42,839 bases of DNA, taken from contig SLKS01000064.1 of NCBI GenBank assembly GCA_007134465.1, positions 1-42,839 of the forward strand, written 5' to 3'. Position numbers and translations under genes: made by a program. The notes beneath the pieces were generated by a model that did not search any database, was not told the origin of the DNA, and saw only the letters and a list, made by a program, of their open reading frames with translations. Within the stretch, counting starts at the first letter, position 1, and every line of letters starts with the position of its first letter. Below, piece by piece: positions 17,398 through 30,528 of this stretch. Origin of the DNA: Kiritimatiellia bacterium (GTDB lineage: Bacteria > Verrucomicrobiota > Kiritimatiellia > UBA8416 > SLMC01).

Positions 17398-17434
17398 CAT
17401 CACTCATCATTCCGCACTCATCATTCTCTTCCCC
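17398..17434. repeat. Repeat A copy 1 (CATCATT heptamer core TCATCATTCCGCATTCATCATTCTCTT)
   Basis: One of 8 copies: pyrimidine orientation at 17398-17434, 18621-18651, 21144-21172 and 26928-26965, purine orientation at 19914-19949, 20817-20855, 23977-24011 and 30176-30213. Confidence 0.9.
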
Positions 17435-17440
17435 GGTCGG

Positions 17441-18178
17441 CTACGCGATGGCGAAGAAATGCGGGGGATGGTCCGATTCGTCTTCCTGCAGCCGCCTTTC
17501 TTCCTGCTCCTGGCGGAGGGCTTCCGATTTTTCGGCGAGCGCTTCGGCTTCGATTTGGCTGGCGCGCGCGGCGATGGCGGCGTCTTCCGGCGAGGGATCG
17601 GCGGGAGCCAGCGCGGCCGCCCGCATGCGTCGGGCCTGCACGATCTTGCCGTCCGGATCGCCTGCGGGCGCATGAATGGATATGTCGGCCGAGCCGCCTA
17701 TGGCATAGGCCCGCCCGTCGGGCCCGATCTGGTATTCGTAGGTGACATTGGTCGCCCCGGCGGCGGCATGCGCCTGTTCGTGAGCGCGCACATGCGCATC
17801 GCGCTGCCGCAATTCCTCCACCTGTCTCTGCTCGCCCTCGCTCAACTCCCCTGCGCGAGGCTCGTCTTCCGCGCCGGCCGCCTCGCGACGGACGGATTCC
17901 TCCATCCGGCAACGCGAACAGACGCCGCAATAGCAAGTGCGCAAGGCAACGGAATCCTCCGCATCGCCCCGCACCGCGCGCGAACTCTCCAGCTCGGCCT
18001 GGCCCGTTTCGCGGCCCGATGGCGCATAGGTGTCTTCCGCGACTTGGCCTTGCGCATCCGGCTCTCCATACGCCCTGCCATCCGAATCCGGCATCGCGCG
18101 TCCGCGCAACGCTTCCGAAGCCCCGTAATACTCTTCGAGCCCTACAGGGACGCTTGTCGCCAGTTCCGATACCTGCAT
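17441..18178 (-). CDS. SprA-related / CJM1_0395-type putative metalloprotease family protein
   Basis: ELRQRDAHVRAHEQAHAAAG..YEYQIGPDGRAYAIGG..AALAPADPSPED signature plus a CYCGVCSRC motif. ATG 18178 has a GGAGG RBS. Confidence 0.8.
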   Translation of the reverse strand: MQVSELATSVPVGLEEYYGASEALRGRAMPDSDGRAYGEPDAQGQVAEDTYAPSGRETGQAELESSRAVRGDAEDSVALRTCYCGVCSRCRMEESVRREAAGAEDEPRAGELSEGEQRQVEELRQRDAHVRAHEQAHAAAGATNVTYEYQIGPDGRAYAIGGSADISIHAPAGDPDGKIVQARRMRAAALAPADPSPEDAAIAARASQIEAEALAEKSEALRQEQEERRLQEDESDHPPHFFAIA

Positions 18179-18198
18179 ATCGCACACCTCCAAAACCC

Positions 18199-18225
18199 TT
18201 ATCGGCGTTTCCGGGGATTTCTTAA
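18199..18225 (-). promoter_or_regulatory. sigma28 (FliA) promoter for the SprA-related gene
   Basis: Minus strand TTAAGAAA-N11-GCCGATAA: perfect -10 and correct spacing against consensus TAAAGTTT-N11-GCCGATAA, about 20 nt upstream of the ATG. Confidence 0.75.
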
Positions 18226-28155: not shown

Positions 28156-29132
28156 CGGAAGGCGAAGATCAGGCGGCCGGCCTGCGGCGCGCAAACGATT
28201 CGCAAACGGCCTTGCTGCCGCGCGGATTGCGCATTGTCGCGGTCAGCAGCGGCAAAGGCGGAGTCGGAAAGACGATGACGTCGATCGGACTGGCCTTTTC
28301 GCTGGCGCGCGCGCAACGCCGGACCTTGCTGATTGACGGAGACGTGGGCATGGCCAACGTGGACATTCAACTGGGCATTGATCCGGAAACGACGTTGCAG
28401 GACGTGGTCTTCGGCAATCGAACGCTGGCCGAGGCGATCGTGACCGTGGAACCGGGGTTGGACGTGCTGCCGTCGCCCTGCGGCGCGCCGGAGATGGCGG
28501 ATCTGGGTCGCGCGCGCCAGCGCCAGTTCGTGGATCAGCTTACGGCGTTTGCGGGCGGCTACGATTTTCTGATCATTGATGTCGGCGCCGGCATTGGCCA
28601 GAACGTGCTGTCGTTTCTGGCGACAGCGCCGGAAACGCTCGTGGTTGTCGCCAACGAGCCCACTTCGATCATGGACGCCTATGCCGTGGTCAAGGCGCTG
28701 CGCCGCCTGCCCGAGCCGCCGCACATCTCGCTGGTGGTCAACATGGTGCGCGATCTTGCCGAGGGCGATGCGCTGGCGGGGCGATTGAACGGGATCGTGA
28801 AACGTTTCCTCGGCGTCGAACTGCCGCTGGCCGGCACAATTGTCTTCGACGAACAGGCGCGGGCCGCCATCCGCGCGCGAAAACCGGTCATGAACTATGC
28901 GCCGCGCTCGCCGTCCGCGCTATGTCTGGCGGAGCTGGGCCGTTCCGTGGCGCACCGCAAGCCGGGCGCCGCGCGCCCGCCGCGCGCCGACGCGGGTCTG
29001 TTCGAAAGCTTGGCCGACATGAAACTGGCCTCGTTCAAAAAGACGGACGCGCCCGCAGCGCCGCCGGCGGCCGGCGGCAATGCCGCTACGCAGCCTGAAA
29101 CACCGTCGCAAACGGAGCGCGAACAGCCATGA
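28152..29132 (+). CDS. flhG: MinD-like flagellar number regulator FlhG/FleN
   Basis: N-terminal DQAAGLR, SGKGGVGKT, DGDVGMANVD and EPTSIMDAYA. Start overlaps the flhF stop (ATGA). Confidence 0.92.
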   Translation: MTEGEDQAAGLRRANDSQTALLPRGLRIVAVSSGKGGVGKTMTSIGLAFSLARAQRRTLLIDGDVGMANVDIQLGIDPETTLQDVVFGNRTLAEAIVTVEPGLDVLPSPCGAPEMADLGRARQRQFVDQLTAFAGGYDFLIIDVGAGIGQNVLSFLATAPETLVVVANEPTSIMDAYAVVKALRRLPEPPHISLVVNMVRDLAEGDALAGRLNGIVKRFLGVELPLAGTIVFDEQARAAIRARKPVMNYAPRSPSALCLAELGRSVAHRKPGAARPPRADAGLFESLADMKLASFKKTDAPAAPPAAGGNAATQPETPSQTEREQP

Positions 29133-29416
29133 GCAAGATTCTGGGCCAACTGGCGGTGGCGATTGGCGGGCTGTTGTTCATTGCGGCCATGACCACCGGT
29201 CTGGTCCGCGGCGTACCGTTGAGCACAACGTTGTTCCGCGCGCTGATCGTCTTCTGCCTTTCCTCCGTGGGCATGGCGCTCTTTTTCCGGTTCTTCTCGA
29301 AAGTGCTGTTCCAGTTCGCCGCCGAACAGATCATGCGCAACCGCGCCGCCAAGGGAACGCGACCGGGCGCGCCCGGCCCGGCGCTGCCGAAAGCCGAGGA
29401 AGGAAAATCTGAATGA
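29129..29416 (+). CDS. Small two-TM hypothetical membrane protein
   Basis: 95 aa with two hydrophobic helices. ATGA overlaps with both flhG and fliA. Confidence 0.7.
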   Translation: MSKILGQLAVAIGGLLFIAAMTTGLVRGVPLSTTLFRALIVFCLSSVGMALFFRFFSKVLFQFAAEQIMRNRAAKGTRPGAPGPALPKAEEGKSE

Positions 29417-30186
29417 GCCCGGAATCTTCCACGTCTCCCATGCCGGCCCTGTGGCAAGCCTACTGGCGCGACCGCGATTCCGCGCAGGCGCTGGAACGGC
29501 TGGTCGAAGCCTGGATGCCGCTGGCGCAACGGGTCATGGAACGGTTCGCCATCCGGCTGCCCGCTCATGTGCAGCGCGACGATTTGTTCCAATGCGCCGT
29601 GCTGGGCCTGTGCCAGGCCGTCGAATCGTTCGATCCGAACAGGAACGGGGCCGCCTTCGAACCGTTCGCCACCCATCGCATTCGCGGGGCCATGCTCGAC
29701 GAGCTGCGCCAGAACGACCGGCTCACCCGCCATGCGCGCGTCCAGCTTCGCGCCGTGGAGAAAACGGCCGAACGCTGGATGCAAGACCATGGCCGCCCGC
29801 CGTCGGAATCGGAACTGGCCCGGGCCGCCAACATGACGACCGAAACGCTGAGCGATTTGCTCGGCCACGCCCAGCCCTGGCTGTCGCTGGATCAGGCGCA
29901 CACCGGCGCGCCCGACGGCCGGTTCGCGCGACTGCAAGACGTCTTGCGCGACGAAAGCGCCCCCACCCCCGACGAACAGGCCGCGCAACAGGAATTGCTG
30001 GCCGCCTTCCGCGCCTGCTTCCGACAACTGGACGAGCGCGAACAGAAAATCCTCTACCTCTACTATTTCGAGGAATTGCGCTTGAGCGAAATCGCGGAAT
30101 TGTATAGCTTGACCGAAGCGCGCATCAGCCAGATCCAATCCATGGCCATCCTGAAACTGCGCGCCATGATGCAGCGAAGAGAATGA
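29413..30186 (+). CDS. fliA: RNA polymerase sigma-28 factor FliA/WhiG
   Basis: RLPAHVQRDDL..GL..FDP, RIRGAMLDELR and LYYFEELRLSEIA..LTEARISQ. Follows flhF-flhG. Confidence 0.93.
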   Translation: MSPESSTSPMPALWQAYWRDRDSAQALERLVEAWMPLAQRVMERFAIRLPAHVQRDDLFQCAVLGLCQAVESFDPNRNGAAFEPFATHRIRGAMLDELRQNDRLTRHARVQLRAVEKTAERWMQDHGRPPSESELARAANMTTETLSDLLGHAQPWLSLDQAHTGAPDGRFARLQDVLRDESAPTPDEQAAQQELLAAFRACFRQLDEREQKILYLYYFEELRLSEIAELYSLTEARISQIQSMAILKLRAMMQRRE

Positions 30187-30528
30187 TGAATGCGGAATGA
30201 TGAATGATGAGGGAAGGGAAGAAGTGAGTGGTAACCAGTGATCAGTGATCCGTGATCAGTTTGTCACTCGCGGGTCGCCGAGGCAAGGCGGGCATGGGCC
30301 GATCCGTCCGACTTGTTTGACTTGTCTGACCTGTCCGACTGTTTCGCTTCCGTCATGGGGAGAAAAGAGGGGAATCGCCCGGCTACGGGGGCGCAAACCG
30401 GCGCGAAGCGCGAAGGCGGGTCACCAAGTCACCAGCGGCAGGGCCGCTGCCGCCGGATGAAACGAGAACCACGAAGAGCGCGAAGAACCAGGAACGAAGC
30501 CGCGCCCTCGTTGAACGAGGAGGAGGCC

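Follow-up and report, generated by a model that had tools for sequence, protein, structure and literature searches.

A strand-polar heptamer repeat at gene edges in the split flagellar region of a Kiritimatiellia bacterium

Introduction

Repetitive extragenic palindromic (REP) sequences and REPINs are short intergenic repeats, present in many copies at 3′ ends or between convergent genes, either singly or as inverted doublets that fold as hairpins. Miniature inverted-repeat transposable elements (MITEs), such as the Correia elements of Neisseria, consist of a short variable core bounded by terminal inverted arms of about 25-30 nt; they lie beside genes and can influence the expression of their neighbours. 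Integron attC sites, shufflons, and invertible promoter switches combine imperfect inverted repeats with a variable centre and a fixed orientation right after the stop codon. This study concerns a repeat with some likeness to each of these, designated repeat A, in the flagellar region of a 42,839-nucleotide contig of a Kiritimatiellia bacterium (SLKS01000064.1, assembly GCA_007134465.1). The whole contig is called the window. An original prediction read the copies as nested brackets around promoter-plus-gene modules, with the repeats acting either as recombination sites that make the modules invertible or exchangeable, or as boundary marks.

Repeats built of 7-nt units are also known. TAACTGA direct repeats are abundant and intergenic in Beggiatoaceae, Cyanobacteria, and Bacteroidetes (MacGregor 2015, PMC4679880), a paper that also cites the long simple-sequence repeats of Mrazek et al. 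2007. In the sections of PMC4679880 used here, stop codons in the forward orientation are said to limit the overlap with coding ends, the distribution is patchy and possibly horizontal, no mechanism is known, and most of the repeats in the BOGUAY genome are found immediately ahead of start codons, with structures not reported. In addition, highly similar upstream regions before non-homologous genes have been described as "putative mobile promoters", that is, promoter reuse (Nijveen et al. 2012, PMC3575422, in the part used here).

The element described below is a variation on intergenic palindromic or heptamer repeats that are already known. In the following, R denotes the purine strand of a repeat arm and Y its pyrimidine strand. 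As the outcome of the analysis, a supposed flagellar shuffling switch is replaced by a testable rule: the purine arm follows stops, the pyrimidine arm precedes starts, and the unit is R-loop-Y.

Copies of repeat A and gene polarity

The 22-nt core of repeat A, TCATCATTCCGCMTTCATCATT, has eight matches in the window with up to three mismatches, seven of which are exact to the degenerate core. The matches start at 17404, 18624, 19920, 20826, 21151, 23983, 26938, and 30182, on strands +, +, -, -, +, -, +, and -, respectively. They span 17.4-30.2 kb of the 42.8-kb window, every copy lies at a gene edge, and Tandem Repeats Finder (TRF) reported a period-7 array at all eight. The expected count is 0, with no match in 100 dinucleotide-preserving shuffles of the window, and the eight copies originally placed in the flagellar part were borne out with their positions and strands. 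On the pyrimidine strand, repeat A reads TCATCAT-TCATCAT-TCCGCMT-TCATCAT-TCTCTTC.

Three copies lie at stop codons and present R on the sense strand (coding strands read directly). The arm at 17404-17425 (sense strand -) is 15 nt past the stop of an SprA-related gene. The arm at 18624-18645 (sense strand -) is 4 nt past the fliQ stop; the TGA of fliQ continues into GAAGAGAATGATGA, and the 3′ end of the gene on the coding strand is GGGGA-TGA-AGAGAATGATGAATGCGG. A small hairpin and then a run of seven U follow 3′ of this arm. The arm at 30182-30203 (sense strand +) encloses the fliA stop at 30184-30186, with GTGAYCA heptamers after it. The remaining copies present Y on the sense strand ahead of genes. 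Four precede YGGCAY-N5-YTGCT boxes, which are of the sigma54 type, by 8-17 nt: 19920-19941 (-) lies 16 nt upstream of the fliP box, 20826-20847 (-) upstream of the fliO box, 23983-24004 (-) 16 nt upstream of the flgL box, and 26938-26959 (+) 8 nt upstream of the flhF box, where a copy of a related repeat, repeat B (26899-26919), comes before it. The Y arm at 21151-21172 (+) lies 214 nt upstream of the start of a kinase gene, and no clear sigma54 box was seen near it. Thus, the placement at unit edges, three at or next to stops and four at sigma54-type boxes, is as it had been described, and the Pfam assignments agree with the earlier map of the genes inside the brackets. The orientation of the window copies is fully predicted by gene polarity. 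On this point the original prediction is supported: the copies are boundary marks of promoter-plus-gene units.

Does this polarity extend to the rest of the genome? The source genome (G000; 409 contigs, 3.99 Mb, 85% complete) has 27 copies of repeat A with up to three mismatches, on 7 of its 409 contigs. When the copies were sorted by polarity, which relies on a codon-model gene call, 12 of the 27 had R on the sense strand from -19 to +63 nt relative to a stop, and 11 had Y on the sense strand 18-214 nt ahead of a start. The four exceptions are C63:1182, C78:13197 (a hairpin partner), C404:4005 (within a gene), and C404:4572 (at a contig end). Read off the copy list, arm pairs less than 400 nt apart were R..Y in four cases and Y..R in none. 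In the chemotaxis cluster, R..Y pairs persist in three spacers, two of which gave -42 kcal/mol on folding, with z of -4.0 and -5.2; single R arms in the window showed no structure (z +0.5 to -1.3). The arms in G000 are mostly single or hundreds of nucleotides apart.

An R-loop-Y unit reads alike on both strands. Thus, a gene that ends beside it meets R and a gene that starts beside it meets Y, each on its own sense strand. With R beside stops and Y beside starts, a transcription unit with an arm at each end mimics an inverted-repeat pair, which gives the appearance of nested brackets. The balanced order of the eight copies is indeed as had been described; it is weak evidence, though: four Y and four R can be ordered in 70 ways, and by simple arithmetic 14 of these are balanced. 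Moreover, 20826-20847 read on the + strand is an R arm, and 21151-21172, on the other side of the divergent fliO|kinase spacer, completes it as an R-303 nt-Y pair. These two copies are therefore one element and not the ends of two separate brackets.

Beside the R arms there is a further repeated sequence. A 41-nt module containing a GCGGCC...GGCCGC hairpin is present at 18561-18601 and 21052-21092, the two copies being 95% identical, and it follows a repeat A R arm at about 22 and about 58 nt, respectively. The R arm and this module may form a single larger unit.

The hairpin form in metagenomes

An exact 22-mer scan of metagenome contigs found the element on at least 120 contigs, and 80 fetched loci, spanning 45-71% GC, were counted in detail. 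R..Y pairs less than 250 nt apart were found in 44 of the 80 loci and a Y..R pair in one; as pairs, the count is 48 R-loop-Y against 1 Y-loop-R. In 39 of the 48 pairs, an arm has the stop codon of a coding-like open reading frame (ORF) no more than 30 nt away; 19 of the 48 have such a stop on both sides, the hairpin occupying the space between convergent genes. The arms extend over about 30 nt (…AATGATGAATGCGGAATGATGA-RTGATGAAT / ATTCATCAY-TCATCATTCCGCATTCATCATT), and the loops vary in length and sequence. The neighbouring genes are unrelated to each other and include tRNA genes and genes with products resembling acyl-CoA dehydrogenase and Hsp70. As a lead only, the nearest Atlas cluster of one neighbouring protein is most commonly from Acidobacteriota. 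A plasmid search gave one weak match.

Four points are direct observations: the rule of polarity, the occurrence of hairpins elsewhere, the closeness to stop codons, and the conservation of promoters that lack the repeat (described below). Repeat A is probably a gene-end punctuation element that spreads by copying between intergenic regions and not by programmed recombination. It would be one arm of a short intergenic element made of 7-nt units, [X7][X7]-TCCGCMY-TCATCMY-TCTCTTC on the pyrimidine strand. The complete form, apparently common in environmental bacteria, would consist of a purine arm, a variable loop, and a pyrimidine arm, filling the gap after a stop and often lying between convergent genes. 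At gene ends, the R arm would often supply or touch the TGA. Where both arms are present, a 3′-end or intercistronic stem-loop may form; the purine arm would also offer stop codons in all three frames, and the pyrimidine arm before promoters would act as a spacer free of ATG and stops. If functional, the element would be a compact and portable gene-end marker used by many uncultured bacteria and apparently undescribed.

Several observations weigh against gene-end punctuation. The A variant is strikingly clustered in G000, on 7 of 409 contigs, which purely structural punctuation does not predict; likewise, 22 AATGATG arrays lie on 6 contigs, compared with about one per contig in other heptamer families. 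Six of the eight window copies have no local partner arm, which excludes a hairpin as the way in which they act. Compensatory changes between arms numbered 7 against 3.7 +/- 2.3 in shuffles (62 of 500 reached the observed value), which is no excess, in a test biased by the retrieval of the loci through an exact arm. Terminator-like sites in the region are not in excess either (21, compared with 18.2 +/- 3.9 in shuffles). Finally, several of the junctions at which G000 differs from its relatives, at 17.4, 18.6, 20.8-21.2, and 30.2 kb, carry copies.

How does the element compare with known hairpin-forming repeats? As with REP sequences and REPINs, repeat A is intergenic, lies at 3′ ends and between convergent genes, and forms hairpins as inverted doublets. 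In contrast, a single arm is not palindromic but built of 7-nt units, the arms of about 30 nt are identical across contigs of 45-71% GC, and no gene of the REP-associated tyrosine transposase (RAYT) type lies beside the copies, the five Y1_Tnp matches of the genome being on other contigs. As with MITEs, the complete form has inverted arms around a short variable core beside genes. However, no target-site duplication was seen in the flanks of 45 pairs judged by eye, no autonomous copy was seen in the flanks, no R..Y pair of kilobase scale occurs among the 80 loci, no link to a transposase was seen, and the arms in G000 often stand alone. Rfam 15 at the gathering score gave no match in the window and only tRNAs in 16 hairpin-bearing loci; the best match below threshold, to a C/D-box model, scored 27 bits where the gathering score is 42. 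A literature text search for the arm sequences as strings, with supplementary files outside its reach, found no paper.

Heptamer arrays in the genome

In G000, 917 period-7 arrays of many families have a TRF score of at least 28, and 508 of them are intergenic. They favour the 3′ ends of genes: 152 are found from -25 to +30 nt around a stop, compared with 56 at starts. Stops in all three frames were found in 65 of the 3′-end arrays on the sense strand and 17 on the antisense strand, while the corresponding counts for 5′-end arrays are 16 and 11. Single families are polar at 3′ ends (ACCAGTG 14:0, AACCAGT 11:0, ACTGATC 0:18, AAACCTG 14:1, AATGATG 11:0), and GAAGAGA follows 179 of 2690 stops while its complement follows 46. 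The purine fraction around all genes is flat, 0.50-0.52 upstream and 0.52-0.54 downstream. Thus, the polarity of the repeats is not a genome-wide skew.

Repeat B is dispersed and has a 21-nt core in common with repeat A. The combined A and B core, TCCGCNNTCATCNNTCTCTTC, has 43 matches with up to two mismatches on 20 contigs, mostly R arms within 30 nt of a stop. The A family is set apart by its clustering and its frequent placement upstream of flagellar promoters. At C253:21-107 and C304:54269-54322, tandem 33-nt repeat B arrays run to the contig ends, and longer arrays probably break the assembly there.

Like the TAACTGA repeats, as far as the sections of PMC4679880 used here describe them, repeat A consists of tandem 7-nt units, is intergenic, and carries forward stops. 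The differences from that partial description are that the G000 arrays favour 3′ ends and that repeat A is a fixed composite with an inverted partner. Could repeat A be a functionless simple-sequence or selfish repeat that arises by slippage or MITE-like spread and is filtered only by selection against harmful orientations? An R arm stops translation and would be tolerated at gene ends, and a Y arm without ATG or stop would be tolerated before starts, while the over-represented period-7 arrays of many families, the patchy presence among related genomes (19 matches in G000, 5 in G001, 1 in G002, 0 in G003, and 3 of 301 phylum genomes), and the sharing of the element with a genome of another family with 45-47% GC are all as expected of such a repeat. 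Abundant heptamers and the stop-codon argument have been published for TAACTGA (PMC4679880, in the sections used here). Against it, the order of units in the composite is conserved and not homogeneous as slippage would leave it, contigs spanning 45-71% GC share the exact 22-mer, the adjacency to stops is very tight, and the inspected flanks showed no target-site duplication or autonomous copy. I regard the selfish repeat as possible, if on the improbable side.

Motility loci and sigma54 promoters

Repeat A in G000 is concentrated at motility and signalling loci. Besides the eight copies of the window, there are 13 on C78, with cheA, cheB, cheY-type genes, HDOD proteins, and a hybrid kinase; two on C404, with a hybrid kinase; and one each on C19 (flagellin, csrA), C63 (flgK, flgI, flgH, flgA, rod genes, fliS), C118 (fliF), and C9 (an AAA/DUF4143 gene), all by Pfam. 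The genome-wide count thus favours motility and signalling, although the enrichment is partly circular, since most of these contigs were annotated because they bear the repeat. Of the flagellar contigs found independently by Pfam families (C63, C64, C118, C293), two of four have a copy.

At 5 of the 7 copy-bearing contigs there are flagellar or chemotaxis genes, and at one a hybrid sensor kinase, which raises the question of whether the A variant is a cis-regulatory site for motility, bound by a flagellar or chemotaxis regulator such as the NtrC-type activator of C382 or a CsrA- or cold-shock-type protein that binds RNA or single-stranded DNA. An AATGATG array ends the sensor kinase gene that adjoins the sigma54 activator on C382, 9-10 of 14 motility sigma54 boxes have a heptamer pyrimidine tract directly upstream while the listed non-motility boxes have none, and one such promoter is followed by csrA and a fliW-like gene. 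However, an upstream activator site of a sigma54 promoter is usually dyad-symmetric, conserved, at a fixed distance, and kept in orthologous promoters. The spacing of repeat A to the -24 box varies (8, 16, 16, 17, and 31 nt), its direct 7-nt units lack dyad symmetry, it is nearer to the box than activator sites usually are, and the orthologous promoters in G001 and G002 do not have it. In the same-genus genome G001, one of the four repeat-bearing loci is motility-related (flbD-motA-motB); the motility contigs C64 and C293 have no copies; the metagenome neighbours are unrelated genes; and the enrichment carries the circularity noted above. A dedicated motility site is therefore quite unlikely.

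As for the regulators themselves, G000 has two rpoN genes (Sigma54_DBD), on C98 and C7, and about 20 strong sigma54-activator matches (25 in total). Among the activator loci, only that of C382 has an AATGATG array, at the stop of the sensor kinase gene.

Upstream of fliR, a sigma54-type box, TGGCATCGCGACTGCT, was found at 16165-16180 (-). Its layout is the same as that of the repeat A promoters with repeat B in place of repeat A: CAGGTTT x2, then TCCGCCC-TCATCCC-TCTCTTC, the repeat B core TCCGCCCTCATCCCTCTCTTC forming a Y arm at 16191-16211 (-). The other putative boxes lie upstream of fliP (19888-19903, -), fliO (20793-20808, -), flgL (23951-23966, -), orf24 and flhA (24227-24242, +, preceded by CAACCAT heptamers at 24173-24221), and flhF (26968-26983, +).

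Over the box and the next 18 nt, the promoters of fliR and of flhB, which is on C293, are identical at 29 of 34 positions. The fliP promoter matches these two at 23-24 of 34, and unrelated promoter pairs match at 12-19 of 34. The similarity of the fliR and flhB promoters points to promoter reuse, judging from sequence identity. It was also found that 67 nt upstream of flgL (23973-24039) are 99% identical to 20816-20882 upstream of fliO. Both cases resemble the putative mobile promoters of Nijveen et al. 2012 (PMC3575422), as described in the part used here. The fliO and flgL pair differs from them in that the shared tract lies upstream of the promoter, while the -24/-12 core differs.

Gene order in relatives

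Gene order was compared with G001 (same genus), G002 (same family; contig L019 among others), and an outgroup Lentisphaerae contig, L027. In L027, fliP-Q-R-flhB-flhA-flhF-flhG-orf-fliA are contiguous on one strand. In G002, fliO-P-Q-R-flhB are contiguous, and next to flhB come a radical-SAM gene and a glycosyltransferase-like gene; kinase, flgL, and orf24, and flhA and flhF, are on other contigs. In G001, flhB is followed by kinase and flgL in convergent arrangement. REARRANGEMENT is real: the fliOPQR-flhB-flhA operon is fragmented in G000, unlike in the outgroup. The block from fliO to fliR is inverted relative to the block from kinase to fliA, and flhB stands alone on C293 (4753-5867) as a single-gene unit between oppositely oriented unrelated genes. 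In G000, fliQ and fliR are about 2.6 kb apart, with the remnant of a radical-SAM gene, the SprA-related gene, and a MITE-like palindromic repeat in between; G002 has no such stretch. Thus, the flagellar genes are split, partly inverted, and interleaved as had been noted, and on this comparison the flagellar export cluster appears to have been rearranged in this lineage. The locus is a clear example from nature in which a conserved operon for flagellar export has apparently dissolved into single-gene sigma54 units with reused promoters.

The palindromic MITE-like repeat at 17163-17347 is about 185 nt long with 59-nt arms that are 73% complementary, and it has many copies in the G001 and G002 genomes at 87-96% identity.

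With up to two mismatches, repeat A has 19 matches in G000, 5 in G001, 1 in G002, 0 in G003, and 19 in G012, a genome from another family of the same order with 45-47% GC in which the matches are mostly pure TCATCAT arrays. With up to one mismatch, 3 of 301 phylum-sample genomes match, G000 among them. The sigma54 boxes of fliO and fliP are kept at the same place in G002 and that of flhF in both G001 and G002, with no repeat A upstream. Since these orthologous promoters lack the repeat, it is a recent and dispensable addition to the G000 promoters. On the G012 contigs L113-L119, the TCATCAT arrays are accompanied by a GC-rich repeat B core in common with G000 despite the much lower GC, a hint that the element has been transferred or has a conserved partner.

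The comparison of gene order gave a mixed answer to the expectation that breakpoints fall at the copies. Several junctions found only in G000 do carry them, while three of the eight copies (fliO|fliP, flgL|orf24, flhA|flhF) are at junctions whose gene order is kept in relatives. In the relatives' spacers read at fliO|fliP and flhA|flhF, the promoter is present and repeat A absent. Almost every intergenic spacer of the region is repeat-rich, so no causal link from the copies to the unique junctions can be drawn. The same junctions could also be sites of assembler misjoins at a depth of about 8x.

Did the copies serve as a passive substrate, with 35-75 nt of near identity recombining occasionally through a RecA-type ectopic route and thereby aiding the fliO-to-fliR inversion and the break-up of the operon in the absence of a dedicated system? 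Copies are present at junctions found only in G000 (after fliQ, the SprA-related gene, and fliA, and on both sides of the fliO|kinase spacer), and they are 96-99% identical to each other over 47-67 nt. On the other hand, coincidence is expected where spacers are nearly all filled with repeats, the left end of the inverted block (about 15.1-15.2 kb) has only a degenerate heptamer tract and no copy, and the site of flhB on C293 has no A or B copy. Relative to G001 and G002, the intergenic sequence has diverged too far for breakpoints to be placed at the nucleotide level, and the possible misjoins concern the same junctions. I consider such a passive role unlikely.

A bolder form of the gene-end punctuation reading can be outlined. 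Repeats A and B would be a strand-polar, sequence-defined "gene punctuation" hairpin, undescribed in Rfam or the searched literature, whose exact arm, common to distantly related bacteria over a wide range of GC, would imply horizontal spread or a conserved partner that reads 7-nt units. In this Lentisphaerota-like genome, the motility variant would have split into single arms flanking autonomous sigma54 units, and copying of arm plus promoter would have let fliOPQR-flhB-flhA break up and change orientation with expression kept. Taken as a whole, this scenario is doubtful and I would give it little weight.

Recombinases and read-level evidence

The original prediction raised the possibility of programmed cassette shuffling, in which repeat A would provide sites for a site-specific recombinase that moves promoter-plus-gene modules. 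The copies are inverted and at unit edges, the order of the cluster differs among G000, G001, G002, and the outgroup, and G000 has family matches elsewhere: five to the tyrosine recombinase family PF00589 and five to the Y1 transposase family PF01797, with none to the resolvase family PF00239. As had been noted, the window encodes no recombinase; family searches found no integrase, resolvase, or Y1 transposase on its contig. The suggested search of the genome for recombinases linked to the repeat ended negatively. No recombinase gene was found on contigs with A or B copies in the 85%-complete genome, and the Y1_Tnp matches are on C372, C240, C288, C17, and C61, which have no such copies.

The geometry also speaks against shuffling. 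In site-specific inversion or cassette systems, pairs of sites enclose genes, while the pairs of this element span spacers (48 versus 1). Gene polarity alone explains the orientation, some junctions with copies are also conserved in relatives without the repeat, the copies in metagenomes lie beside unrelated genes, and the balanced order arises readily by chance, as calculated above. Repeat A resembles attC sites, shufflons, and promoter switches in its inverted arms with a variable centre, its location after stops, and its fixed orientation. It differs from them in that no integrase gene and no GTTRRRY-type core accompany it, and in that the G000 genes are not promoterless cassettes in a single array, the copies being spread over 7 contigs. 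Thus, the recombination-site reading is unsupported and contradicted by the geometry of the element, and programmed shuffling is very improbable.

A public sequencing run that holds the stretch (share 0.86) was examined through its Logan contigs, which stop at repeat copies. The pieces are 20094-20845, 21185-24001, 26936-27599, 27473-30205, and 30182-30990. At the joints, the sides are just 21-35 letters long, and a strand change was seen in none of the 15 joints listed, of 55. In one Logan contig, 30205, the end of the fliA arm, is joined back to 26930, where the flhF arm starts, by way of 19 other letters. This joint may stem from a different locus that has the two arms, or from a tandem or circular form.

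Other features of the region

The genes of the region were assigned by Pfam unless noted, and their start coordinates are approximate. On the - strand lie fliR (Bac_export_1, 15241-16017), the SprA-related gene (PF12118, 17441-18178), the radical-SAM remnant (18304-18576), fliQ (18650-18919), fliP (19096-19875), and fliO (20191-20778). The remnant is internally deleted; in G002 the gene is intact just downstream of flhB (L019 1188-2240). The PAS-HisKA-HATPase-receiver kinase gene (21387-22961, +) is convergent with the flgL-type gene (22973-23905, -). On the + strand follow flhA (24650-26767), flhF (27040-28155), a gene assigned by position to the place of flhG, an ORF of 95 amino acids, and fliA, which ends at 30186.

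The first ATG lies 12-14 nt past the -12 TGCT of sigma54-type boxes on the - strand (19873-19903 and 20776-20808), and the same holds for fliO and fliP of G002 (L019). This short distance suggests that the flagellar mRNAs are leaderless or nearly so. Directly before the starts of fliQ and fliR, on the sense strand, lie A-rich GAACGAC / GAACAAG heptamer arrays (18926-19008 and 16019-16073), which occupy the place where a Shine-Dalgarno sequence is expected.

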